Source: a virus. From it: DNA of 64,000 bases. Made by a program: the position numbers and the translations under genes. This document shows positions 5,311-59,311 of the stretch, in pieces (position 1 is the first letter of the stretch; each line of letters begins with the position of its first letter). The notes below the pieces were generated by a model. It did no database searches. It was given only the letters and a program-made list of their open reading frames with translations, and was not told where the DNA came from. Where the stretch lies: positions 3,939-67,938 of IMG/VR virus record IMGVR_UViG_3300038701_001282; one strand, written 5' to 3'.

Positions 5311-5523
5311 ATGCCTATGTACGTTTGCAATTGTAATGTTATAAACGAAGAGGAAATAATAGATGCTACGCATAAACTACAATTAATAGAGGATGCTAGC
5401 ATAGGAGTGACCGAAGTGTTACAAGTGTTAGGAGAAAAGGAATTGCAATGTGGTATATGCTACGCTAACATGAAGGTTACAATAGCTCAAGCCAAATCGA
5501 TGTATAACCCTTACAGAGGATGA
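5311..5523 (+). CDS. bfd: bacterioferritin-associated ferredoxin-like (2Fe-2S) protein
   Basis: MYVCNCNVI.....CGIC, the CxC-x31-32-CxxC Bfd pattern. Confidence 0.8.
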   Translation: MPMYVCNCNVINEEEIIDATHKLQLIEDASIGVTEVLQVLGEKELQCGICYANMKVTIAQAKSMYNPYRG

Positions 5524-5524
5524 T

Positions 5525-5998
5525 ATGACTAGAATTAACTGTGTAGAGCCTAAGTACTTACTTGATGAATGGGTAGGCTCTCATGTCCGTGAGGGGCTAA
5601 GACCCTTAAATAACATATTAAAAGGTAAGGACAGTATTGACAAATCCCCTGACGACTGGAAGTTAGGTCAAGGTCATGAGTACTTCTGTCGTAAACATTT
5701 AGTATTTACTATGAGACAATGGTATGCTGCTAAAGCTGAGTGGGTAATACGTGGTGGCCAGGGGTTTGATTTTACTCCTGCTCCTTTTCTTAGTCTTGAT
5801 GAAAAGTATCTTAACGATTACACTCCGACTACCAAAGCTATTCGGTCTAACATTGCCAGATTATGTAGTAGATGGAGAAACAGAGAAAAAACTTTACATT
5901 TTAAAGGCAAACCTATTGACAATGTAAAACAATTCAGACAATATTTAGCTTATCTTAAATTGATGACTGGCGCTTACAAACCAACGAGGAATTGTTAA
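5525..5998 (+). CDS. denV: pyrimidine-dimer DNA glycosylase / T4 endonuclease V
   Basis: MTRIN start with Thr2, Arg3, Arg22, Glu23, Arg26 at T4 DenV positions; LGQGH and DY.P motifs. Confidence 0.9.
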   Translation: MTRINCVEPKYLLDEWVGSHVREGLRPLNNILKGKDSIDKSPDDWKLGQGHEYFCRKHLVFTMRQWYAAKAEWVIRGGQGFDFTPAPFLSLDEKYLNDYTPTTKAIRSNIARLCSRWRNREKTLHFKGKPIDNVKQFRQYLAYLKLMTGAYKPTRNC

Positions 5999-6228
5999 TT
6001 ATGAAATATACTACATTATTATTGATTATTTGTTTATTATGCTCTGCCTGTACTGTGAGAGTTAAAGACACTCAGACAAGTGCAACACTTAGAGCTAATG
6101 TTGTAGCTCCTGTGAACCGACATGAAGCACAATCTATATGTGCTATGGGGTTTGTTAAGTCATATGTTAAAAAGACTGCAGATACTGACCTTAAGGTTAC
6201 ATGTAGGTTCACTAAGGAGATAAAATGA
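5992..6228 (+). CDS. putative lipoprotein
   Basis: LLIICLLCSAC lipobox-like signal. Confidence 0.5.
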   Translation: MLIMKYTTLLLIICLLCSACTVRVKDTQTSATLRANVVAPVNRHEAQSICAMGFVKSYVKKTADTDLKVTCRFTKEIK

Positions 6229-6413
6229 CAGAAGAGGATGTTCTTGATTTTTTAGGGAAGAATAATATAAGTCTGTCAGAATTAACTACTATTGAAACAA
6301 GGTATTTCTATGAGGAATCCTGGACAGTAGAAGTTGTATCACTTACTGGGATCGCTAAGGTTATTGAAGCTGCACAATCACAAAAACATGGAGATAAAAA
6401 TGATAGTACATAA
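6225..6413 (+). CDS. hypothetical protein
   Basis: ATGA overlap and GGAGA RBS. Confidence 0.55.
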   Translation: MTEEDVLDFLGKNNISLSELTTIETRYFYEESWTVEVVSLTGIAKVIEAAQSQKHGDKNDST

Positions 6414-6894
6414 AAAAGGTTGCTTAATAGAAGCATTCAAGAAAGGTGAAGTAGATGCTATAGCTCATGTAGTTAATTGCCAAGGTGTAATGGGGAGTGG
6501 ATTAGCTTTGCAGATTAAGAAGGAGTTTCCTGAAGCATACGAAAGCTATATGATGAAATGTGAAGTGAATTACGATTTAGGATTTGCTACTTGTGAGTTA
6601 CTAGGAGACACCAGTTTGCCATATCCTGACCATTATAAAGTTTACAACATGTTTGCACAAGACTTTTATGGAGTAAAAGATAAGCACCTAAGATACTACT
6701 ACTTAACACGATGTTTATTAAGGATTGGCCAAGATAAGGGAAACTTTACCCCTCCTACTTTTGACCCTAAACTAGGAGTTCCATGCCTGTTAGGCTGTGA
6801 TAGGGCTGGCGGTGATTGGAGCGTAGTGTTAGAGATTCTTCAAGATTTTTCTGACAATTATGGTATTGAAATTTTTATTTACAGTAAAGATTAA
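6400..6894 (+). CDS. macrodomain (ADP-ribose binding/processing) protein
   Basis: KKGCLI...AIAHVVNCQGVMGSGLALQIKKEFP macrodomain motif; start placed at ATG 6400 behind GGAGA rather than ORF-track 6334. Confidence 0.85.
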   Translation: MIVHKKGCLIEAFKKGEVDAIAHVVNCQGVMGSGLALQIKKEFPEAYESYMMKCEVNYDLGFATCELLGDTSLPYPDHYKVYNMFAQDFYGVKDKHLRYYYLTRCLLRIGQDKGNFTPPTFDPKLGVPCLLGCDRAGGDWSVVLEILQDFSDNYGIEIFIYSKD

Positions 6895-6896
6895 AC

Positions 6897-7112
6897 ATGA
6901 AATTAATATTAACTTTGGTAGTGACCTTAGTATTAATAGGATGTGGAAGCAATCCTTATTCATGTCCAGAGAAGAGGCTGTGGCTAATGACTGAATTCTT
7001 AAAAGAATGCACTAAAGAGAAAGATCCAGAAACTTGTGCTGCAACAGCAAAGCAGTTATACTGTGAGGTAATAGACACTAAATCACAACAGGAAGCAAGG
7101 GACTGGAAGTAA
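6897..7112 (+). CDS. putative lipoprotein
   Basis: LVVTLVLIGC lipobox. Confidence 0.55.
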   Translation: MKLILTLVVTLVLIGCGSNPYSCPEKRLWLMTEFLKECTKEKDPETCAATAKQLYCEVIDTKSQQEARDWK

Positions 7113-7120
7113 AAGTTTAT

Positions 7121-7198
7121 GTCCCTATAGCATAATTGGATTAATGCAGGAAATTTCTAATTTTCAGATTGGGGGTTCGAATCCCTCTAGGGACGCCA
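7121..7198 (+). tRNA. tRNA-Arg(TCT)
   Basis: full cloverleaf GTCCCTA/TAGGGAC, D arm GCAT/ATGC, anticodon loop TTTCTAA, T arm TTCGAAT, encoded CCA. Confidence 0.95.
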
Positions 7199-7202
7199 TA
7201 TT

Positions 7203-7754
7203 ATGAAGATACCTAACATAGATAAAAATTGTTTTAAGTTAGACAAGACATTGGGCTATATGTATGCCATAGTACATGGACATCCTCTAGCTAACAAGTC
7301 TGGTAAAGTTTATGAGCACATTTATGTTGTATGCCAAGACATCGAAAGGAGTCTGTTAGACGAGGAATGTGTTCATCACATAGACAGAGATAGAGCTAAC
7401 AATGCCAGGAATAATTTGAAGTTAATGAGTAAGGTAGATCATGCCTTATTGCATGCTAAAGAAGATGGTAAAAGACTTAGAAAGTCCTTGTCATGCCTTG
7501 TATGCGGCAATATATTCTTGGGAGATGAACATAAAAACAAATACTGTTCTACGAGTTGCCAAAGTAAGGCAGCAAGGAAGTTTGATATAAACAAAGACGA
7601 ATTAACAATCATGGTGTGGAGTTTTCCTACTACGCACATAGCCACAATGCTTAGAGTATCCGACAAAGCAATAGAGAAGCGATGTAATAAGTTTGGCATA
7701 ATTAAACCTCCAAGAGGATTTTGGAGTAAACTAAGAGAACTAAGAAGCAATTAA
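7203..7754 (+). CDS. HNH homing endonuclease with Zn-finger and HTH-like tail
   Basis: VYEHIYV...CVHHIDRDRANNARNNLKLMS..DHALLH HNH motif; CLVC...CSTSC. Confidence 0.85.
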   Translation: MKIPNIDKNCFKLDKTLGYMYAIVHGHPLANKSGKVYEHIYVVCQDIERSLLDEECVHHIDRDRANNARNNLKLMSKVDHALLHAKEDGKRLRKSLSCLVCGNIFLGDEHKNKYCSTSCQSKAARKFDINKDELTIMVWSFPTTHIATMLRVSDKAIEKRCNKFGIIKPPRGFWSKLRELRSN

Positions 7755-12138: not shown

Positions 12139-12327
12139 TCTGAGGTAGCTTAATGGTCATTATACTACTTTTTTAGCTAACTGGTAGTATAATGAAGTGA
12201 GGAGGTGTATTTAGAGTCGGAAGCTTGGTAGCTCCCTGCCTAAGACCAATAAAATACACTATCTATTCACTAGAGCGCTGGACGGTTAATCCAGAAGATG
12301 TAGGTTCGAATCCTGCCCTCAGCTCCA
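12139..12327 (+). tRNA. tRNA-Asn(GTT)-like gene interrupted by a 114-nt D-loop insertion
   Basis: 5' half TCTGAGG-TA-GCTT-AATGGT (12139-12157); 3' half AGAGC-G-CTGGA-CGGTTAA-TCCAG-AAGAT-GTAGG-TTCGAAT-CCTGC-CCTCAGC-T-CCA (12272-12327); halves pair in acceptor and D stems. Confidence 0.8.
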
Positions 12328-12341
12328 AACCTTTTAATTCT

Positions 12342-12460
12342 AAAGCACTTTTTCATGTTTTGAGCTATAAATTTCAGCTTTCAAACAGAAAATTAATTTT
12401 CGAATATAATATCAAAAAGCTTGATATCAAAAGCACTTTTTCATATTCTGAGTTGTAAAT
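12342..12460. repeat. 31-nt imperfect direct repeat (2 copies)
   Basis: 12342-12372 and 12430-12460, 27/31 identical, core AAAGCACTTTTTCAT. Confidence 0.8.
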
Positions 12461-16866: not shown

Positions 16867-16869
16867 GGC

Positions 16870-18245
16870 TTAACAGACGAATCCACACCTGATGTTCTAC
16901 CCTTTACCTATACCAACCTACCACCTATATGCTAAAAGCCCCTCACGGGGCTTAGAATGCGTTCTAGTGCTATGCACTAAATATCCCCTTTATATTCCCT
17001 AGAATATAGTATTACTTTTATTACTACTAATTATGGTGGTATTAGACTTACATTGTATTAAGACTCTGTATGTAATACATACAATAGCATTAGTTTATGT
17101 ACTACGTACATATGATAGCTATTTATGATGAGTAATTATATCTTGATGGGTGCTATAATTGGTAAATTATGTTTAAGAGATGTATAATACTTGGTGTATT
17201 GTGTTTAGCACATTTCCCTTGCGTATGCAAGAAATCTTTCAATAATTCTTAGAATAATTACATTATTCATCTAATCCTTCTTATTTCTTACAGAAATATA
17301 CTAATCTAACCTAATATAAGCCCTTCTCAGAGCATTAATAATTATCTATGCCAATGCATAGGGTATAGCTATACCTACGCTTAGAGCGTATTACAGAGCT
17401 TAGGCATTGTGGTTACACAATAGAAGGGTGGCTATAAGATGAGATTAATATTAGGTAGGATTGGCTTACTTATTGCTTAGCAATATAAATAGGATAAGAA
17501 ACATACAGATAACGCAGTTGTACTGCGCATAATATCCATTATGTTAAATAGGTGATTTTTAAGTTATATACACTATGTTTCATAGTAGAAAATACTCTTA
17601 AAATACAGTGATATTTTATAATTATAGCTTGCTTTTGAGGTGTAGGTGTGGTAGTGCTAAGCACCAATCTTGTAAATTTATTGAATCCTTCAAAATATAA
17701 CCAACACACCATAGATTATTATTTCATGTCTAGAGACATAGATAGTGCTCTTAACTATAAGTCTAATACATACCAATATTGATATTTTTCAGATGTAATA
17801 TTATCGATAGATCGATAAAAGTGAGTTCAAAATTTTAAATTTTAGTATTAGAGTATGTCCTCGGACAGAGGACTAAAGGTAGGAATGATATATTGTATCA
17901 ATAACAGGTATATTTTAGTATTAGAACTAAAGTTCTAGTATACTCATACTAATATCTTAGATATTTTAGGATAGTACTACAAAAGATAGGTAATTCTCTG
18001 GGAATACAGCAAAATCAATATCTGGAGAGGAGCGTAGCGAGGATTTAGATATTGGGGCGCTGTTGGTAAAGGGTGGTATTATCGTTATAAACGATATTTT
18101 ATCTGTTATTTGGTTGTTTATTGTTGTTTCTTAAGTATTAGATTTGAGGTGAGGTGGTACTTTAGTATTATGTAGGGCAGGGAACACCCCTGTACAGCTC
18201 TCTCAGGGGCTTTATGTTGAAATAGGTAGGTTAGGTAGGGTTAGT
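16870..18245. other. about 1.4 kb non-coding, palindrome-dense region between convergent gene blocks (candidate origin or genome-terminus region)
   Basis: no ORF of 60 aa or more in the track; many short inverted repeats; related elements at both edges. Confidence 0.6.
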
Positions 18246-18246
18246 A

Positions 18247-18507
18247 TTAAAGTCCTTTAAGATACTCCAGCCTGCTTTTACCCGATATATTTTTAATAGC
18301 CCTCTCTAGGGCTTCCTCCCAACACCAAAGCCTGCTTCTACCTGCATATGTAAATCTAATTAGCGACTCACTACACAAATCGCAAGACCTTGAAAAGTCA
18401 TACTCGCTCAATATTCTGTCTATTTCGCTATACTTCCTTGCCTTAAAAAGCTCGGTTATTTTATTGCACATAGGCAATATATCTTTCATTTCAGTGTGTT
18501 TTTTCAT
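18247..18507 (-). CDS. hypothetical protein
   Basis: last ORF of the leftward block. Confidence 0.55.
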   Translation of the reverse strand: MKKHTEMKDILPMCNKITELFKARKYSEIDRILSEYDFSRSCDLCSESLIRFTYAGRSRLWCWEEALERAIKNISGKSRLEYLKGL

Positions 18508-18531
18508 GCGTCACTTCTTAGTTGCTATACA

Positions 18532-18698
18532 AGGTACTCTTGAGAGTTGTGCTGCACTGAGTCGAATCTAACTCTCAGTCCGTGTCGCTTTAGTAAAGAC
18601 TCGAATAACCTCGTCTGTTTTAGCTATCGGCCCCATCCGCTTATATCGGGGCATGCATTCGATTTACATGCTTTACAACACAACTCACAGGAATACCC
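18532..18698 (-). ncRNA. candidate structured ncRNA, element B
   Basis: 13-bp terminal stem GAGTTGTGTTGTA/TGCAGCACAACTC with G-U pairs valid only on minus strand, extendable to about 25 bp; several internal hairpins. Confidence 0.65.
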
Positions 18699-18707
18699 TG
18701 TTATTTA

Positions 18708-20184
18708 TTAAAAGTTTCTAAAACTAATCGCGCGCGTAATTTTTACATAAAATCTTGGAAGATTAGCAACGGCAATATCTGGTGCCAACCAAGGACTAAA
18801 TTCAAACCCAGTGCAACGATAACCTTTCTCTGGATTATGCTTTGGCGCAAACAGGCCAACATGAGTTCCACACCACCCTCGAAGCAACCCAGGAAATAAA
18901 AATATGGCTGTATACCTTACCTGCACTCTAAGTAGCGAGTTTTTACACTGGCCATCCATAACATTAAATTGAATACCAACCAAATAAGGAATATTAATAT
19001 CACTCATACATCACCTTTGTTTGTTGTTAAAAACAAATATCACAAGAGCAATACGATCGGTTGCCGCCACTTGCAATGCTTCCGCTTTCACAATTTTTTG
19101 AACCTTTGAATGAAGGTCCAAAGCTATAACTTGAAACTTTCCCAACATCAAAAAACTTTTTGCCATCTTCACTGTCACGATAGGGCTTGACGCACTCCTC
19201 ACAAACTAATGCCTCTCTATGCGATAGGTCTCCTTTTTTTGTGACTTTGTATTTTGCTTCATTTGTGCATTGGTTTCTATTTCCGCAACATTTCACAATC
19301 TACCCCTCCTCTTTGTTATCTAATACTGCATATAATGCGTGATCGTAGTCGGCTGGGTACGTGTGTCCATCGCATTGATATTTATGCTCTCGTATAGCCG
19401 CCTCTAGCTCTTTTATGCGCTTATCCTTCTCTGACTCTGGCTTTAATGCTTGCGCCTCGTCGTAAATCTCACGAGCTATACGTACAGCCCACTGGCTGAC
19501 GCGATCACATTCCACTATTATTTTTTCTTGTGCTTTGTAAAAATATTGGTCACTCATCACTTCACCGGCCTATTTAATTGTTCGTTTAGTTTCTTAATCT
19601 TGTTTAACGCTGTTTTATAACCTTCCTCTAAAGCAGCATTTCTATCAAGCGCCTTGTTTAATAATTCGCTTTCGAATAAACCTTTATCCATTACTTCATC
19701 CTCACTCATCGTAGAATTCCAATTGAGGACATACCTTAGCCTTCTTGGCTTTAATCCAAGCAACCAATAAGTTATCTTCTTTAGTTGTAGGTAACATGTT
19801 TTCCTGGCGTAGGTACTCTTCTTCTATCTTTCTTTTAGTTCTGATATCACTTAAGATGGCACCTAATAACATAACTAATATGAATCCTCCAGTAAGGGCA
19901 TGTACTTCCAGATCTTCAAAGAAAAACTGCAATAAGACTGTAGAAATAAGAAACAATACAAGACATACCACCACTATTCCTCCTAGAATTACAACCAAAC
20001 CTAGTACAACCTTCCAGAAGTAAAGGCATAAGCTATTAGGTACAATCTTAGGGCTGCATACAAGAGATGCTATTTTGTAGTGGATACTATTTTTATTTAT
20101 TTTCATTAGACTTCCTCTTAATAGTGATAACCTTAATTCTCTTTTTGTTGGCTTGGTTAGTGATATTATCTGTACCAGAGCCAC
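18708..20184 (-). other. small leftward hypothetical ORFs (18708-19007, 19027-19296, 19300-19560, 19557-19763, 19702-20184 membrane)
   Basis: packed ORFs; 19027-19296 Cys-rich; 19702-20184 has two TM segments. Confidence 0.55.
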
Positions 20185-20455
20185 CAGGGAATGCTACCAG
20201 AACATCTGCATTTAAGTCAAGCATTACTGAGTTTCTAATTGGGCCTGCTGCCTTACCATGTAGTTTCCAATTAGGAGGAACTATAACTTCTTGTACTCCA
20301 TTATCTCTAGCCCATTTACCACTTAGTTTGTCTACACCTTCACAATTACCATGAATCAATACTTCTATTTGTAGTTGATTGTTAGCTAAGTCTAAGGCTT
20401 CTCGTATAAATGGCTCGTCATTGAAGTCTCTGCCTCCACACACCACTATGACCAT
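20093..20455 (-). CDS. SLOG/YspA-like (DUF2493-type) nucleotide-binding protein
   Basis: VVCGGRDF...IHGNCEGVD...W..HGKAAGPIRN...AFPGGSGT. Confidence 0.85.
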   Translation of the reverse strand: MVIVVCGGRDFNDEPFIREALDLANNQLQIEVLIHGNCEGVDKLSGKWARDNGVQEVIVPPNWKLHGKAAGPIRNSVMLDLNADVLVAFPGGSGTDNITNQANKKRIKVITIKRKSNENK

Positions 20456-22348
20456 TCGTTGTTAACCTCTAAGTCAGGCTCTTCTAAGAGTCTTTTTGCT
20501 ACGTCTCGGTAATGTTGAATAATATCTGTTAAGTGTAACGGAACTATGAAGTCATCACCAGGCACATTCTTATCAAAAGCTAGCTCACTACAAAACAGAA
20601 GGCCTCCAAAATCATTTCCCCATAGTTCAAGGTTTACTCTGGCCCAATCTTCAAGCTCAATATGATCTACAAACCCTAGTTTATCTGCAAGTATATCTGC
20701 CCCTTTTACGTAGAATTCATCCTTTCTTTCTAATTTCGTTGGAGAAATACTTGAGTACATTATTGCAGCCCAACCTCCATGGCAAGCTGGAGTGTCACAA
20801 AGATTTACTTCTTCTTCTCTTTTATCACAAGGTTCATCCATGTCTACTGCTGTTTCAGCTAAGTTATTTTTAATAACAAAGTCTTCAAAATCTTGTGCTA
20901 CTCGTAGAAACTTTCCTGCTAGCTCTTTATGTTTCATTTGTCTTCTCTCGTTGAGTTAAGGGCATCTGCCAATTCAATTAAACTGTCTACCATCTCTTGG
21001 TATATCATCTCTAATCTTACTTGAGGGTTCTTAACCCTATTTCGTATACCATCTATCTTAGCTTGTACATGACGAAGTTTCAATACTAATTTTGGATCAG
21101 CATTATCTATGATCTTCTCTACTTCTTCGTGGAGATATTCTAACTTATCTTCGTCAGACATGTCAAACAGTTCATCAAATGATTTCATAACTTACCTATC
21201 AATATTTCTAATTTCTTCAATTGATATTATACTTGATAGAGAATAGAGTTCAACATTACCATTATCGTCCATTAGTACCCGGTAACCTGAAGAATAATCT
21301 ATTACAGTGCCATATCTATTGTTAGAGCCTACTATCATAACCCTATCACCTTTGTTGTACTTACAAGCTGTAATTAATGCTACAATTGTTATTGCTATAA
21401 TAATTTTAATCATATCAATCTTCCATCCTGAATCCACTTATACCTACTAAATACCACATACTACCATCTGTAGATTTCTCAAACTCTACTACTCTCTCCT
21501 CTAACATTTGCACATCCACTTCTGGGTACATCTCAAAATGTCTGGGAGACTCTGGTATAACTACTTTAATTCTATCTTTACTTATACTCGAAGGATGTGG
21601 AGTTTCCTTCAGCGCCCAATACAACTCACCTGGAGTTATTCTAAATTTCATGATTTACTTACTCTGGCTAATAATAAGGTTGCTAGCTGTAATTGTTGGC
21701 TTTCAGCATCTGCTATAGACTTATCTAGTTTTCCTAGGGTAATATCAAAGGTGTCTTTTTCTTTTTCTCTTGTGTCGTCTGGAAGTAAATTATACATACT
21801 TTTCAAATTATCTCTACTTTGTTTAGCCAATCTGATTTCTGAACCTAGCCACTCTAATCTTAGTGTATGGCATTCGTCAGATTTAAAAGAATCTGTATCT
21901 TCTTTAAACTTAAAACACACAATGGTTACTATAACCAAGAAAAATAGTACAGCAACTGCAATAACTGTTATGTTTTCATAAATCATGATTAATCCTCCGT
22001 TGGTTTAGGTACACCATACACTTCATCTTTTAATCTTGCAAGAGTCTTTTCTAAATTATTTATATATTGAATGTTTTGTTTCTTATCCTTTGCTTGTCTT
22101 TCTAGAGATTCTTCTTCTGTTTCAAGCCTGTAAGCAACTAAATCAAATCTGATATCATCCCCATACTCTATGTATGCACATACATCAGTAGTTATATCTT
22201 GGTCTTGGGGTAGTGAATCTAAAAAATTATTTAGTGTATCACGTAAGTGTTTTACAGGGTTAGGGTTAAACTTCCCATATGAATTTGAATACTCATCCAA
22301 ATTTAGACTATCAGAGATTAATTTTACTCTTCTTTTAGCTTTGGTCAT
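20446..22348 (-). other. leftward hypothetical ORFs (20446-20937, 20934-21188, 21192-21437, 21415-21651, 21648-21986, 21989-22348)
   Basis: packed ORFs; 21192-21437 lipobox-like; 21648-21986 TM plus coiled coil. Confidence 0.6.
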
Positions 22349-22842
22349 TCAATTCTCCCGTGATTCTCATGAAATCCATATTTGTTCTCTGCTGATTTTC
22401 TTGCACAACAAGCTTCAAAGAAGTCCTCATAACTCCCTATGTAATTTTTCTTCCCTATAGTAACTTCATAGCTAGTGCGTTCAGTCCTCTTCCTGACCCC
22501 AGATATACCAGTCTTATTTCTTTGATCTAGTTTCTTGTTACGATTATTAGCATTAAAATCAGCTTCACGAAGATTTTTAATTATATTATTTCCTGGATTA
22601 CCGTCTATATGGTCTATATGAGATCCTGTTTGATAGCCATAGTGTAAAAACCAAACAACTCTATGCACTTTATACTGACTGCCATTATATTGCAATACTC
22701 TATATCCATAGGAATCTGTAGTTCCTGCCATATCACCTTTTTGAGCCATACTGTTAATTGATTTAGTCCAACGTAAATCTCCATTCTCTGGATTATAATC
22801 AAGCAAGTCTTTTAATTCTTCTGGTATAGGCTTAGCTTTCAT
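22345..22842 (-). CDS. HNH endonuclease with AP2-like C-terminus
   Basis: YKVHRVVW...IDHIDGNPGNNIIKNLR; NKTGISGV...IGSY..FFEACCARKSAE. Confidence 0.9.
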   Translation of the reverse strand: MKAKPIPEELKDLLDYNPENGDLRWTKSINSMAQKGDMAGTTDSYGYRVLQYNGSQYKVHRVVWFLHYGYQTGSHIDHIDGNPGNNIIKNLREADFNANNRNKKLDQRNKTGISGVRKRTERTSYEVTIGKKNYIGSYEDFFEACCARKSAENKYGFHENHGRIE

Positions 22843-23239
22843 TATAAAACTCTCTATTCAATAGTTCAGGGTTAGCATAGATATTACCAATTACAGTTAT
22901 ACCTTCATTAATGTCTAAGGCATACCCATACCCAACAGCTCTGGTTGTAGGTAGAACTTCATAAGATGCATCAAAATCATTCCAAATTATCTGACATATA
23001 ATGTACTTCTTGATGTCATGATCATACATCTTAACAATGTCACCGTCGTATATTTCAGTGCCATTCTTATCTTCTTTGCCAGTCCACTCTACTGTAGGTA
23101 AGTGTGTAATCTCCTGCCTACCATTAAACACATGGGCCAGTACTTCACCATCCCTGACAAAATAACCCACCTGCTTGCTAGATTGCATCATAATACCTTT
23201 CTCAGCATTCCAGGCTCTAACTTTGGTTACTTTAGGCAT
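22832..23239 (-). CDS. YopX family protein
   Basis: KVRAW...TGKEDKNGTEIYDGDIV...VIGNIYANPELL. Confidence 0.85.
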   Translation of the reverse strand: MPKVTKVRAWNAEKGIMMQSSKQVGYFVRDGEVLAHVFNGRQEITHLPTVEWTGKEDKNGTEIYDGDIVKMYDHDIKKYIICQIIWNDFDASYEVLPTTRAVGYGYALDINEGITVIGNIYANPELLNREFYNES

Positions 23240-23396
23240 TTATCACTCCCCTGAAGAATCTTTTGCATACTTCCACTCAACCATACGACCAATAGGTTCT
23301 CTGCTGTCAAAACACTCTTCCCATTCTTGTCGTTCAGGATTTCTGCCTACAATGTACTCACCATCTTGTGGTAATCCATCTTCAACTTTATTCCAT

Positions 23397-23852
23397 TCAC
23401 TCATTTATCAAATCCTTGTTTTCGTAGATGTTACCGATTACCTGAATCTTATTTCTATGGAAAGTTGTCATGAAGTAAGGCTCATATTTTGTACTAGAAC
23501 CACTCCTACCAAAAGGCCTGCCATTGTCATTTAGTCCCCAGACTCCCCATTCTTTAAAAAATCTAACTTCAAATAATTTTTCCTTGTTACTGTTTCCGTA
23601 TTGAACAATATCTCCTTCATAAATATCTTTACCATTCTTATCTTTGAGGTCTGTGTATTCCATTAGTTCAAATTTAGTCTGATTATCTTCGTCAAATGTT
23701 GGATCATCTAAACTAGACCAGCCAGTGCTAAAATAAACATCACTGCCAGAAAATAATATTCCTTCTTTTGCTGAATCAAATAACCTCATTCTTTTATTGG
23801 CATAATCCCATGCTCGAAATTTAATTTCCCTACTCATAATAGATTTCCTCAA
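23397..23852 (-). CDS. YopX family protein
   Basis: REIKFRAWD...YTDLKDKNGKDIYEGDIV...VIGNIYENKDLI. Confidence 0.9.
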   Translation of the reverse strand: MRKSIMSREIKFRAWDYANKRMRLFDSAKEGILFSGSDVYFSTGWSSLDDPTFDEDNQTKFELMEYTDLKDKNGKDIYEGDIVQYGNSNKEKLFEVRFFKEWGVWGLNDNGRPFGRSGSSTKYEPYFMTTFHRNKIQVIGNIYENKDLINE

Positions 23853-24948
23853 GGCTTTCTCTAATCTCTGTCCTTGCGATTGTGACTTCCTCTGATACTA
23901 TTTCAAACATCTCTTTAAATGCTTCAAGCTGAGCTAACATTTCTTTCTTCATGGCTTGTTTGAATTCATCAGATAAGATAAGGCTTCTCTCTGTATTAAT
24001 ATAGCAACAGAGTAGGTAGTCTACATCCTCTCCCCATTCAGATCCTTCTAAGTCAGCATATTTGCTCAGTAAGTAAAATTCTTCTTCATTCATAATCTTC
24101 TATCTCAAAAGCTTCTGATTCATCATCACAATCGTGGAAATATTGTTTCTTCTCTTCTACTGAACAATCAAGTTGTTCATACATCTTAACAATAGCTTCT
24201 GATTTACTGTCGGCTTCAATTATGTCGCCATATATTTGGCACTCTTTCACTATAACTTCATACTTAGGCATCGGTCAAGTACTCGATAACTTCATTTAAT
24301 GCCATTCCAGCAACTACATCAGCTCCTAAGCGTAATGCTGCTTTGTGCCGAAGCTCTCCTTCAGTTAGGCCATCTAAGACATCTGCTGCATTTACGATAG
24401 GTGAGGTTACTGCATCTACTGCTGTACCTAATGGATCATCAATAGCTCGTTCTACTGTACGTGATGCCATATCAAATAAATCTCCGAACATTTTATGTTC
24501 TCCTTCTGTTAGTGGTAAGGTTTTAATCAACTCTGGCTACTGTTGTTAGGAGAGCAGTAACACCATCCTCTCCTTTCTTGTATAATGCCATAATAGCATA
24601 CTTATGGAATCCTACAACACATTCGTCGTCAGACATTGAACCTGTGAGAGGATAGACATCATTCATTCCGAACTCTCCCTCTGATAATAATCTAAGGTTC
24701 TCGTCTTCTGTAGGAGGCTCAGCCCAAAAATCATCTTTATTTAGAACAGGGTTTGTGAATTCATCAGCATATTCTGCCAAGTACAACAAATATGCTTTCT
24801 CTAGTGTATTGCCTTGAGAAATATATTTATTTATTCCCTTTACTACAATAGCCCAACTAAACTCTGCTTGTTCTGATGCCCAACTGCTTGAAATTATATC
24901 TGACATATTAAAACCCTCTCTATTTGCTGTTTGGTGGTTTACCATCAA
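23830..24948 (-). other. four small leftward hypothetical ORFs (23830-24093, 24086-24271, 24264-24530, 24523-24948)
   Basis: overlapping start/stop packing. Confidence 0.55.
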
Positions 24949-25561
24949 TTCGTTTATTACCTATACGCATGTGCCCGATAACAGCAATACGAGTTCCTAT
25001 TGCCACAGGACACTTAACAAAATACTCTTCTTCTATGACATCTGGTCTGTCTTTAGGTAGGCTGCATTCTAAGAATTGAATACATAGCCCAGGCCTAACA
25101 TTTACTGCCTTATAATCATTAACTTCATATTGGGCTATGCAGACTAACTGATCTTCATTCAACTTTCTTTCTGAGTATACTTCAGAGCCTACCCTACCTC
25201 TAACATTGTGAGGTATCCCGTAATATTCTACATATGATCTGTTTACTGCTAGAAATTCCCATCTCCCCTTCTTAAAATCTTTAACCTTAACCCAAGCTGG
25301 GACATTATAGAAATCCATATGGTCTACCCACACTTGGAAACTTGGTTGTACTGAGTCTAACTCTTGATTTCTTAATTTGTCAAGTTCTTGTTGTAATTCT
25401 ATTTTCTTTATTGTTGATTTCAATAAAGCATTATCTTTTAATGATCTATCATCTGCAAGTTTAGGATAAATTGTAAAGTAGCCCCCTATTAATGCAGTTA
25501 ATACTGACACTAGCGCTATGGCTAGTTTAACTGTCATTGAGAATTTTTCTTCTTCTTTCAT
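24920..25561 (-). CDS. membrane-anchored PAS-fold protein
   Basis: N-terminal TM (LAIALVSVLTALIGGYF), coiled coil, then PAWVK...FLAVNRSYVEYYG...G....VY...YEVND...VKCPV...AVIG PAS-like pattern. Confidence 0.65.
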   Translation of the reverse strand: MKEEEKFSMTVKLAIALVSVLTALIGGYFTIYPKLADDRSLKDNALLKSTIKKIELQQELDKLRNQELDSVQPSFQVWVDHMDFYNVPAWVKVKDFKKGRWEFLAVNRSYVEYYGIPHNVRGRVGSEVYSERKLNEDQLVCIAQYEVNDYKAVNVRPGLCIQFLECSLPKDRPDVIEEEYFVKCPVAIGTRIAVIGHMRIGNKRIDGKPPNSK

Positions 25562-25564
25562 ATA

Positions 25565-27402
25565 TTACATAGTTCCTGTATATCTGTAAAGCTTAAATTG
25601 CAACTTACTGGTTATTGCTTCAGTGTCATAATAGAATATTCCATCAATACATTTAAGTAGGCTTATACACACCCTATTACCACTAGGTAAGTGATAAGAT
25701 ATAGTACAATCCTCTTCTTCTCCTTTTGGGAGTACTTTATAATACCTAATTGCGCCCTCTCTTGCGTAGACAGGCCCTCCGCCAAAGTACACTGGACTTA
25801 GGTCTTTGTAGTCTTTGACTAATACAGTTTTTAAGTAAGTTTCTGGAGGTAGGTAATCGTAACTAAGTTTAGATTTAACTTGGCTCCACTCTGAACTCTT
25901 AGAATGTTCTAATATTTTTAATATCTGAGATTCTTTTAATTCTGTTTTGAAGTGCTGCTTAATCTTCTGTATTATTGCATTCATCATGACGTATACCTAG
26001 AAGATCTTCTATTTGATCTTAGTTCCTTTTAGTTTATTGATTAACATACTTAATCCTTACTGTTATATTGCTATTGTAATTGATATTGTATATATCATAT
26101 ACGCAAGTGAACTCCACATAGTGAATAGAGACACTGCTGTGTTAGTTGTTTCTTTTTCAGTCTTAATTCTTCTATCTAAGAATACTTCTGCTGTTACTAC
26201 CAATACCAGCAAAGATAGGTATAACATTGTTAAGCATTTAGTTAGTACTAGCATAAGTTATATTTCTTTATAATAATTAAGTTAATCATGCTTCACCTTT
26301 TTTGTATCCGGCTGCCCCAGTTATATTTTCAATTGTTGTCCATTCTGTAGGACGTGGTACATACTCTCCACCTATGTCTGTTCTAAAATCAACCACACAT
26401 GGCTGAGGTTCTGTTCTTATATTCCCAAACCGATATGACCCAGAAGCTATAGAATTGTTATTGTACTTCAGGAGTATTTGTGAACCATCCTTTGGTGCAC
26501 TATCTATAGATTTCCAAGTTACATCTGTCATCTTAGTCTCCTGTACTCTCTTCTTCAGTGTTTTGTTGGTGTTGTTGATCAATTTGATCTGCTAAATTAC
26601 ATACTTCTTGTTGTATATAAGAATAAAAATTATATCTTTCTGAATACGGCCCAGACTGACGAATCTCAAACTCCATTACTGCATTAATGGTAGTTTCTAT
26701 ATTACTTAATCTGTTGTGTATGTAACTTATCTCTTTCTCAACTGTCATCATTAATCCTATCTTTAATTTTTGTCAGTTCACTTTCTACTAGTTCGTCCCA
26801 ATTGGTACCTCCATTGTAGTACAAAGCTTCGAAAGACACAACACCGTACTCATCTACTTGTACATTGCAGTATTCTACTGCGGGGTCATATTCATTCTCT
26901 ACCTCTACAAAGTATAATTCATTATTAACAACAGTCAAGTCGTAATACCAAGGATCATCATACAGTTGCTCTAATGCATTACTGTATGCTTTAGATAATG
27001 TCCCTTCTTTTCTTAGGATTAATTCTTCTGCCCAGTCTTCTATTGTTATTTCATGAAGTGTGGATTTAACTGGGGTTATCTTACCAGTTGATTTCTCATA
27101 ACTACTCATTATTGTTTTCCTTGGTTAATCTAAGTCTTATCTGATAAGAGATTTTTATGGTTCTTTGCAGACCTTAATGCATCGAATCTATTACAAAATA
27201 TTACACCTTCCAGCCCATCTTCATTTCTAACCCAAAAGAAATGAGAGTGATCTGCATTTAAAAATATTGTATAGCCATCTGGAACTGGTATAGCACCAAA
27301 CCTATTTGTATAGTCAATGCAGCCAGCCTCAAAATATGTCTCAAGGGTTTCCTCTGGTACGTCACAAGCCACTCTATTCATCCACTCCTCAGCTGTTTCC
27401 AC
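25565..27402 (-). other. leftward hypothetical ORFs (25565-25987, 26286-26582 DUF551-like, 26533-26751, 26738-27109, 27130-27402)
   Basis: packed ORFs; TWKSIDSAPKDG in 26286-26582. Confidence 0.55.
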
Positions 27403-27828: not shown

Positions 27829-28068
27829 TTATTTCTTTGTTCGTCTTGTTCTCAGCCCTTTTTGGGGAAGATCTATATCTTCAACACCGGAAAGCCAAAA
27901 TAAAATCTCATTAGCTCCTGCTGGAGAATCATTAAACCGTCCTAGGTCGCTATTAAAATAAGATCCCCCTCTTTGCATCTCCAGGCTATACGGGGAAGCC
28001 CATAAAACAAGATAGAAACCGTTTTCCTTAGGCTTATCTTCGTCTATAAAAACCCATTCCACTTCCAT
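27829..28068 (-). CDS. DUF551-like small protein
   Basis: EWV.IDEDKPKENGFYLV...W pattern. Confidence 0.55.
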   Translation of the reverse strand: MEVEWVFIDEDKPKENGFYLVLWASPYSLEMQRGGSYFNSDLGRFNDSPAGANEILFWLSGVEDIDLPQKGLRTRRTKK

Positions 28069-28145
28069 CCCACTTCCTCCTACTGGTTAATATCTGGGTT
28101 TAAATTTATATCTTCCATACATCACCTCTTGTTTATAAGTAAATT

Positions 28146-28298
28146 GGTGTTATGTGCTGCGGATTGAATTGAACTAACTTCACAATAACTATCACGCTTG
28201 GCTAACGCTCTTAGTCTGCTACCCAGACGACAGAAATAGTTTTGATTTTAGAGCCGGTTAAGCACAAAACTTTAGATCTGCCCACAACACATAACACC
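28146..28298 (-). ncRNA. candidate structured ncRNA, element A (paralogue of element B)
   Basis: 17-bp terminal stem GGTGTTATGTGTTGTGG/CCGCAGCACATAACACC with two G-U pairs on minus strand; internal hairpins AGTTTTG/CAAAACT and GTCTG/CAGAC. Confidence 0.7.
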
Positions 28299-28305
28299 TA
28301 TTTGC

Positions 28306-28491
28306 CTAATAATTAGGAGAGCCCACACAAAGAAAAACGATCTCACCTTGCGAAGTTTGAGTTTCCAAAATATCACCAAAAATTCGATTGCCAGCATCGT
28401 CATCGCAAGTGCTTACATCTACAGATACAGTTAATTCGTAATCTGGAAGATCTAATAATATTTTTGCTAGTTCGTGCGCTTTCATATTCAT
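28306..28491 (-). CDS. hypothetical protein
   Basis: MKAHELAKILLDLPD, common phage small-protein start. Confidence 0.6.
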   Translation of the reverse strand: MNMKAHELAKILLDLPDYELTVSVDVSTCDDDAGNRIFGDILETQTSQGEIVFLCVGSPNY

Positions 28492-39506: not shown

Positions 39507-39593
39507 GGAGTTGCTAGTATGCGTGTTACACACATAAGAGTATACTATATATATATATAATAATATCTGTAACCTTTCCCAAGGCTTACTCCC

Positions 39594-39622
39594 ATTATAA
39601 CATGGAAATCCCGATTTGTCAA
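39594..39622 (-). promoter_or_regulatory. consensus sigma70 promoter (leftward)
   Basis: minus strand TTGACA-17nt-TATAAT with TG. Confidence 0.8.
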
Positions 39623-39759
39623 ATCTTTTTTATAGAATATTTTAGCATAACCAGTAACCACGGGGCCTACAGACCTGAAAAAATATCTAATTGGCATAAT
39701 AATCAACAAATAAAGGTGTAATTAATTTAGTATATAACTTATCGATCTAAAAACAGTAG

Positions 39760-39788
39760 TTGACAAATAGCCATTCTCGTGTTATACT
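39760..39788 (+). promoter_or_regulatory. sigma70 promoter for packaging/morphogenesis operon
   Basis: TTGACA-17nt-TATACT with TG extended -10. Confidence 0.8.
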
Positions 39789-39821
39789 TGTAGTATAACA
39801 ATAAAGAAAGGCTTATTAGAA

Positions 39822-58473: not shown

Positions 58474-58526
58474 GTCCTACCTCGAAAGCCTCTTAATAAT
58501 GCTCAAACTTCGGGGTAGGCATTTTA
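58474..58526 (+). terminator. large-loop hairpin after tube gene
   Basis: CCTACCTCGAA/TTCGGGGTAGG 11-bp stem then ATTTT. Confidence 0.45.
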
Positions 58527-58550: not shown

Positions 58551-59090
58551 ATGAAAGAGCTTAAATCATCTGATATGCAAGCAGAGCTTGGTATCAAAGA
58601 AGAAACTATCGATGGTCATCGATTTGAGATTAAATTATTGCCTTGTGGCCCAGCAGGTGAATTATTCATTGAAATTATGGATATCATAGGCCCAGGATTA
58701 GGTACTGTAGTAGATAAGATGCAAAACTATCACTATATAGAACCAGAAGACAATACAGCATTTACCGAAGTAATTAACACTTTTACCAGTAAGTTAGCTA
58801 GAGGTAACTATAACACTGTATTAGATATTGTATTAGAAGGGTGTCTTATTGATGGCGTACCTTTTGACAGAAATAAACATTTACGAGGGAAGTTTGGTAC
58901 TTATGTATCTTTAGTTAAGTTAGCATTGGAGGCAAACTTCTCTGATTTTTTTACTGGTGTTCTCAGGGATATGGGTTTGGAAATCCCTACCTTGAGCGGC
59001 TTAATGGCAACGATCAAGGAGATGGCAGAGGAGCGTCAGTCGATGACTCAAGCAGTCTCGGAAGATTTGGAAAACGAATCTCAAGAATAA
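58551..59090 (+). CDS. tail assembly chaperone (G)
   Basis: between tube and tape measure; ends ALEANFSDFF region. Confidence 0.8.
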   Translation: MKELKSSDMQAELGIKEETIDGHRFEIKLLPCGPAGELFIEIMDIIGPGLGTVVDKMQNYHYIEPEDNTAFTEVINTFTSKLARGNYNTVLDIVLEGCLIDGVPFDRNKHLRGKFGTYVSLVKLALEANFSDFFTGVLRDMGLEIPTLSGLMATIKEMAEERQSMTQAVSEDLENESQE

Positions 59091-59311
59091 TTAAAGAGAA
59101 TGATTCTTTAGGTACTTGGAAGCAAGTTATATTCGATGCTTATTCATCTAAGTATTGTAAAATACAAGACTGGAGAGAGTTGTATTACAATTACTACCCT
59201 AAAGAATTTTTAAACCTCTTTGAATTTATTTGTCAAAAAGAAGCCATTGAAGAAGCAGTACATAAAGATGCTGAGGCAAAAGCTAAACAAGCTAACAATA
59301 AGGCTAGGTAA
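58551..59311 (+). CDS. tail assembly chaperone GT via -1 frameshift at 58946-58952 (253 aa)
   Basis: slippery T-TTT-TTT; -1 frame open for 119 codons to TAA 59309-59311, 2 nt before TMP start. Confidence 0.85.

Follow-up and report, generated by a model that had tools for sequence, protein, structure and literature searches.

Two co-directional small open reading frames (ORFs) of an uncultured phage are separated by an intergenic stretch whose two ends are complementary to each other over a long distance. The question raised by this locus, which we call element B, is whether it is the gene of a structured RNA, the relic of a mobile element, a repeat that acts at the DNA level, or a signal carried by a longer transcript. 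A first-pass annotation had taken element B for the second copy of a candidate family of non-coding RNAs with several conserved hairpins, the other copy being element A of the same DNA. Here we compare the two elements with each other, with shuffled sequences and with described systems.

Source phage and gene block

The window, that is, the whole stretch of 64,000 nucleotides that was analysed, is contained in a 72.5-kb IMG/VR phage record with a completeness of ~44% (CheckV), and the phage DNA was found in two algae-metagenome sequencing runs; among the runs listed for this DNA there was none of RNA. The large terminase shows 44% identity with that of Pseudoalteromonas phage H101 and ~40% identity with those of 130-kb Vibrio phages, and the phage belongs to the terminase-packaging myovirus type. 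Element B lies within a 21-kb gene block on the minus strand, which runs from ~39.4 kb down to 18.2 kb and comprises genes for ribonucleotide reductase, PhoH, thymidylate synthase, phosphoesterases, YopX, HNH and a SLOG protein together with many small ORFs. No RNase III gene was found in the 72.5-kb record, which is ~44% complete. At 39587-39795, where the early block borders on the terS/terL block, 50-nt inverted arms carry TTGACA-N17-TATAAT-like hexamers and are arranged as a symmetric divergent promoter pair. At 22400-26500 the source run contains variant strains with 80-95% identity, whose contigs omit 23404-24520 and 24921-25957 and carry short replacement sequences instead; this small-ORF region differs among strains.

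Closing helix of element B

Element B occupies positions 18529-18701 (173 bases), is intergenic and is read on the minus strand (Table 1). Its ends form a closing helix, in which 25 of the 27 positions of 18701-18675 pair with 18555-18529, four of these pairs being G-U and the other two positions 1x1 mismatches; the energy of the arm duplex is -35.8 kcal/mol. The first-pass annotation had recognised a 13-bp core at 18544-18556 and 18674-18686 and had considered the stem extendable to about 25 bp, and both statements hold; the two C/A mismatches of this core on the plus strand become U-G pairs on the minus strand. When the whole element was folded and compared with dinucleotide shuffles, the z-score was -5.2 to -5.5 for the minus strand and -2.5 to -3.3 for the plus strand. 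The outer 15 nt of the 5' arm can also form an alternative local hairpin, ACAGG/CCUGU.

Table 1. Coordinates of the parts of elements B and A and of the adjoining start sites in the window.
Feature	Position	Strand	Remarks
B, 5' arm of closing helix	18675-18701	-	core UGUGUUGU at 18675-18682
B, 3' arm of closing helix	18529-18555	-	core GCAGCACA at 18548-18555
B, interior (119 nt)	18556-18674	-	four hairpins in the MFE fold; stability not above chance, z -0.83
B, hairpin ACUGAG-AGUUAGAUUCGA-CUCAGU	18556-18579	-	abuts the 3' core; sole interior feature with a counterpart in A
SD-like AAGAAGUGA and AUG of 86-aa ORFan (18247-18507)	18505-18519	-	9 nt past the 3' arm of B
A, 5' arm	28282-28308	-	core at 28284-28291; opens with the UAG stop codon of the 61-aa ORF upstream
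A, interior	28163-28281	-	119 nt when counted between the 27-position arms, 123 nt from core to core; z +0.74
A, 3' arm	28136-28162	-	core at 28153-28160
SD AAGAGGUGA and 12-codon mini-ORF (28080-28118)	28080-28130	-	stop overlaps the SD of a 79-aa ORFan (27829-28068)

Comparison of elements A and B

Element A (28136-28308, minus strand) has a closing helix of the same size, in which 28308-28282 is matched with 28162-28136 through 25 pairs over 27 positions, including three G-U pairs, with an arm duplex energy of -31.8 kcal/mol. The z-scores of its whole-element fold were -4.0 on the minus strand and -4.3 on the plus strand, so that the fold says little about the strand of A. Counted over both elements, seven G-U pairs are found on the minus strand versus two on the plus strand, and these pairs, together with the direction of the flanking genes, would put any RNA on the minus strand.

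Since MAFFT gave no correct alignment of A and B, their register was set by a script from the shared core. The 8-bp core UGUGUUGU/GCAGCACA is identical in the two elements, both U-G pairs included, in agreement with the earlier assignment of B to the family of A. Within the six positions beyond the core, GUG/CnC is kept, and a 14-bp inner helix segment, GUGnnnUGUGUUGU/GCAGCACAnnnCnC, is conserved with its two U-G wobbles. The 1x1 mismatch at position k8 is also common to A and B. The outer part of the helix was compared over 17 positions, of which 8 are changed on both sides with pairing kept, 2 differ on a single side and 4 are the same in A and B; each copy retains pairing at 15 of the 17, at an arm identity of only 35-41%. 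When the 3' partner was slid by 1-3 nt, the number of pairs dropped from 23 to 7-14. As had been proposed in the first-pass annotation, the pairing of the closing stem is evidently maintained by compensatory change between the two copies, for which the covariation counts are few because there are two sequences only and the two core G-U pairs are common by descent.

No other local inverted repeat in the entire 72.5-kb record is as strong as A and B. In shuffled windows, stems with at least 22 of 24 pairs arose 0-2 times each, the best of them at -29.4 kcal/mol. Since stems of such quality appear occasionally in shuffles, a single stem alone would not be compelling. The stems of A and B are nevertheless not a product of chance, because two intergenic stems have one common core in one register, and the two elements are paralogues.

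The enclosed sequences were then considered by themselves. On the minus strand the interiors of both elements showed no extra stability over dinucleotide shuffles (z-scores in Table 1), and their local alignment was not significant, 204 of 500 shuffles scoring as well. Their global similarity was marginal (9 of 500 shuffles), appeared in the same orientation only and was confined to the 3' third. The hairpin beside the 3' core has similar loops in the two copies, AGUUAGAUUCGA in B and GUUAGUUCAA in A, and the interiors are of similar length, 119 nt in B and 123 nt in A. When B alone was used to build a model, this model found A at 20.2 bits, via the stem only. Since the fold signal lies entirely in the helix and the interiors behave as shuffles do, the selected feature is the helix and not a multi-hairpin fold.

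These results divide the claims of the first-pass annotation. Its internal arms GCATG, CCCC, AGAC and ACTGAG are indeed part of the MFE fold of B, but the interior that they make up is no better than shuffles, and of these hairpins the ACUGAG one, with its loop, has a counterpart in A and the rest have none. The idea of a non-coding RNA with a conserved multi-hairpin structure is not borne out, given interiors that are not stabler than shuffles and whose similarity is limited to the 3' third. Selection at the RNA level, which had been proposed for the whole element, applies to the closing helix and not to the interior, and a suggested link to host defence found no support.

Genomic context and transcription signals

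Both elements lie between co-directional small ORFs of the minus-strand block. Element A starts with the stop codon of its upstream ORF, and the stem of B starts 6 nt past a TAA-TAA, the nearer TAA being at 18708-18710, in line with the earlier remark that B begins soon after a stop codon. At 5-9 nt beyond the 3' arms, both elements are followed by AAGARGUGA and then AUG, which opens the 12-codon mini-ORF after A and the 86-aa ORFan, with its weak coding score, after B. The SD-AUG unit 3' of B aligns with that 3' of A, the similarity of the 3' flanks being reached by 29 of 500 shuffles.

A consensus scan revealed no promoter-like site in or just upstream of A or B and no terminator after the 3' arms; its sole terminator-like calls were the local hairpin in the 5' arm of B, on both strands. 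Because neither a promoter nor a terminator of its own was found, the element looks like part of a polycistronic transcript rather than an independent gene. A switch in which another hairpin would mask the SD-AUG after the element is not supported either, since this hairpin was no stabler than shuffles.

The surroundings of B differ in coding quality from those of A. The minus-strand ORFs just upstream of B (18708-19150), which consist of a 99-aa ORF (18708-19007) and the tail of an 89-aa ORF, have coding scores of 0.08-0.14 bits per codon versus 0.3-0.5 for the genes around A; this stretch is not structured either, and its gene calls are uncertain. At 16867-18246, a 1.4-kb AT-rich gene-free stretch separates the converging plus- and minus-strand blocks and contains several hairpins, with fold z-scores of -3.5 to -4.7. 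The summed contig depth of the source run reaches 12683 at 17207-17613 versus ~2300 nearby, so part of this stretch may be common to other genomes in the sample.

Search for further copies and relatives

Rfam 15 gave no match at B or A, either at the gathering threshold over the whole window or with E up to 10 around both elements. At 58480-58516 on the plus strand, between the tail tube and tail assembly chaperone genes, it reported the abiF RNA motif RF03085 at 44.6 bits versus a gathering score of 37. No match was obtained by blastn against GenBank phages. In pattern scans of IMG/VR and metagenome contigs, the matches listed were only chance ones, in coding DNA and with no extended stem; scans of species genomes returned chance matches or none, and the pattern of the 3' module had 0 matches in viral and genome contigs. 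Neither model R1 nor a generic scan for long stems revealed a comparable element in Pseudoalteromonas phages H101 and HM1, in the first 119 kb of the 130-kb record of Vibrio phage 1.101.O, or in the BBAY78 contigs with homologues of a 163-aa neighbour gene. The sole strong inverted repeat of H101 lies inside gp115.

Related-locus scans with single proteins (TerL and the 163-aa protein) gave no result. The flanking 79-aa and 86-aa proteins had no homologues and are thus ORFans, and exact look-ups returned the same contigs only. An invariant PACHGGW motif marks the family of the 163-aa protein, whose gene lies beside B (20446-20937). Members with 45-50% identity are encoded on BBAY78 contigs L147 and L148 (JGI 3300000979), with 4-6 paralogous copies per contig of these related phages, and on L148 a gap of 2 kb (5384-7348) is free of genes and contains strong GC-rich inverted repeats.

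Two candidates for further copies in the window were rejected. The one at 59052-59158, which model R1 scored at 11.8 bits, falls within the -1 frame of the G/T gene of the tail chaperone, and its loop motif occurs at chance frequency; the stem at 12315-12434 is AT-rich and has a fold z-score of only ~-1. The -1 frame of the tail assembly chaperone (58551-59311, plus strand) is open from before the stop codon to 59311, which is the usual G/GT frameshift arrangement, and the tape measure gene comes next. From the collections covered here, A and B appear to be an orphan two-copy family in one uncultured phage, belonging to no described family.

Possible functions of the elements

We tentatively suggest, with a confidence somewhat below an even chance, that A and B are cis-acting double-stranded RNA sites of the RNase III processing or stability type within a polycistronic transcript. 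A long minus-strand transcript, running from the RNR/PhoH/ThyA genes through the small ORFs, would carry both elements, and the functional part would be the closing helix with its conserved inner segment, its mismatch in fixed register and its outer segment, which is free in sequence but paired. Once formed in the RNA, the helix would be recognised and cut by a factor specific for double strands, the obvious candidate being host RNase III. A cut would separate the upstream from the downstream cistrons, the stem remnants would set the stability of these cistrons, and the ~120-150-nt interior would be released as a by-product or as a small RNA. Bacterial RNase III substrates of the double-cleavage type have an intramolecular helix of at least about two turns, and both copies of the element provide 25 pairs over 27 positions. 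Such substrates are characterised further by staggered, rnc-dependent cuts with 2-nt 3' overhangs and by base-pair preferences in proximal, middle and distal boxes near the cut. A helix of 25 bp makes more than two helical turns and suits double-strand-specific RNases. Double cleavage in intramolecular stems is described in PMC6212723. The identical core with its two U-G pairs, together with the common k8 mismatch, may be signs of sequence-specific recognition. A plain RNase III site needs no 120-nt interior, so the similar length of the two interiors is not explained by this model.

Another reading is a processed trans-acting small RNA, in which the interior would be functional and the closing helix would only excise or stabilise it, as for stable RNAs released from operons. 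The conserved length (119 vs 123 nt) agrees with such an RNA, as do the hairpin loop AGUUAG(A)UUC(G/A)A that A and B have in common beside the 3' core, the marginal global similarity of the interiors in the same orientation (9 of 500 shuffles), and the retention of some interior hairpins in centroid folds. We consider it unlikely, however, since the interiors fold no better than shuffles and have no significant local alignment, Rfam has no match even at E up to 10, no promoter or terminator was found, and no homologue was seen among the matches listed for the collections searched. The size and architecture of the elements, 27-nt inverted arms and 173 bp overall, fit another kind of origin as well, namely a miniature inverted-repeat relic of the Correia (CREE) or ERIC type, whose two intergenic insertions would now be co-transcribed, with a hairpin effect that is incidental at most. 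The inverted repeats of CREE are roughly 26 bp. Both A and B are intergenic and have ORFan neighbours, and ATA is present on both flanks of B, although these flanks are AT-rich and a 3-nt repeat is weak evidence. The length of CREE is 153-157 bp (PMC2649163). Such an origin is nonetheless quite improbable in our view, as there are two copies only, deeply diverged from each other and with none elsewhere among the matches listed. Conservation of the inner part with variable termini is the reverse of what transposase-bound ends would show, and compensatory change indicates selection on pairing and not on the sequence of the arms. Moreover, A has no matching flanking repeat, the similarity of A and B extends into the 3' flank including the SD-AUG unit, and no transposase was identified among the 50 ORFs scanned.

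It should also be considered that the repeat might act as DNA, as the border of an invertible segment, a recombination site or a pair of protein-binding sites, with its arms kept alike by recombination. Both copies have inverted arms on either side of ~120 bp and a core that is conserved, concerted evolution between arms might look like compensatory change, and in the source run the main contig stops at 18699, where B has its outer edge, a hint of strain variation from there on. On the other hand, an inverton is accompanied by a site-specific recombinase in its own genome, and no tyrosine or serine recombinase (Phage_integrase, Resolvase) was found in the 72.5-kb record, which is ~44% complete. 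No sigma-70-like promoter is present inside A or B, the interiors are alike in the same orientation only, and the contigs across B show one orientation. Furthermore, the arms are 78-81% Watson-Crick complementary and the remaining positions are mostly compatible with G-U pairing on the transcribed strand. Taken together, a role at the DNA level seems very unlikely to us.

The processing or stability site is thus the reading that we prefer. If it is correct, A and B would offer a small illustration of the means by which a 21-kb early transcript of a large marine phage is split up into units that differ in stability, and would indicate that selection can fix a long RNA helix and its core while the enclosed sequence drifts. 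There is in addition a slim chance that A and B represent a wider and so far undescribed class of stem-closed RNA cassettes in phages, in which the helix would be the handle for a processing enzyme and a cargo of ~120 nt would diverge or be swapped, giving different small RNAs from the early transcript. If such cassettes were common in phages, one could usefully search for small RNAs of phages with a template that combines a shared processing handle and a variable cargo. The weight of these implications is modest at present, for a two-copy orphan of one uncultured phage.

Comparison with known systems

Several known systems differ from the present locus in their associated genes or motifs. Retron non-coding RNAs (msr-msd) go with a reverse transcriptase, for which the 72.5-kb record has no RVT_1 match, and the neighbours of A and B are small ORFans. 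The end boxes of integron attC sites (RYYYAAC ... GTTRRRY) are absent, no integrase was found in the ~44% complete record, and the sole GTTRRRY match within B is located in the hairpin loop and not at an end of the element. CREE (nemis) of Neisseria are closer: like A and B, they are intergenic elements of ~150-170 bp with inverted repeats of ~26-27 nt. In mRNA, co-transcribed CREE fold into hairpins that are bound or cleaved by RNase III (PMC2649163). They number, however, more than 100 near-identical copies, whose termini are conserved and which have TA target sites, whereas the phage has two deeply diverged copies in which the termini vary and the inner helix is conserved.

Among stable phage RNAs, rnaC and rnaD of T4 and the stable RNAs of T5 resemble A and B in being non-coding elements of 100-200 nt in large lytic phages. 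They are known RNA species and lie in tRNA clusters, whereas A and B lie between protein genes and are compared with them by description. Y RNAs, including YrlA, and the pRNA of phi29 likewise have their 5' and 3' ends in a long helix and measure ~170 nt overall, and their long terminal helix carries a protein-recognition site. No match to Ro60 (TROVE) was found in the 72.5-kb record, nor any Rfam match at A or B, and phi29, unlike the present phage, is not of the terminase-packaging myovirus type.

In their probable mode of action A and B resemble, besides the Correia-type hairpins, RNase III processing stems, that is, the intercistronic sites of T7-type early mRNAs, the stems of rRNA operons and the intervening sequences of 23S rRNA. 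The core sequence of A and B corresponds to no described RNase III site, and the T7 sites are compact hairpins of ~50-60 nt that have no 120-nt interior. Like A and B, these stems have a long helix of more than two turns; an intercistronic position in a phage transcript of the early type and a mismatch near the middle of the helix are also found in both, and the rRNA stems and intervening sequences, as A and B do, place such a helix around a sizeable variable interior.
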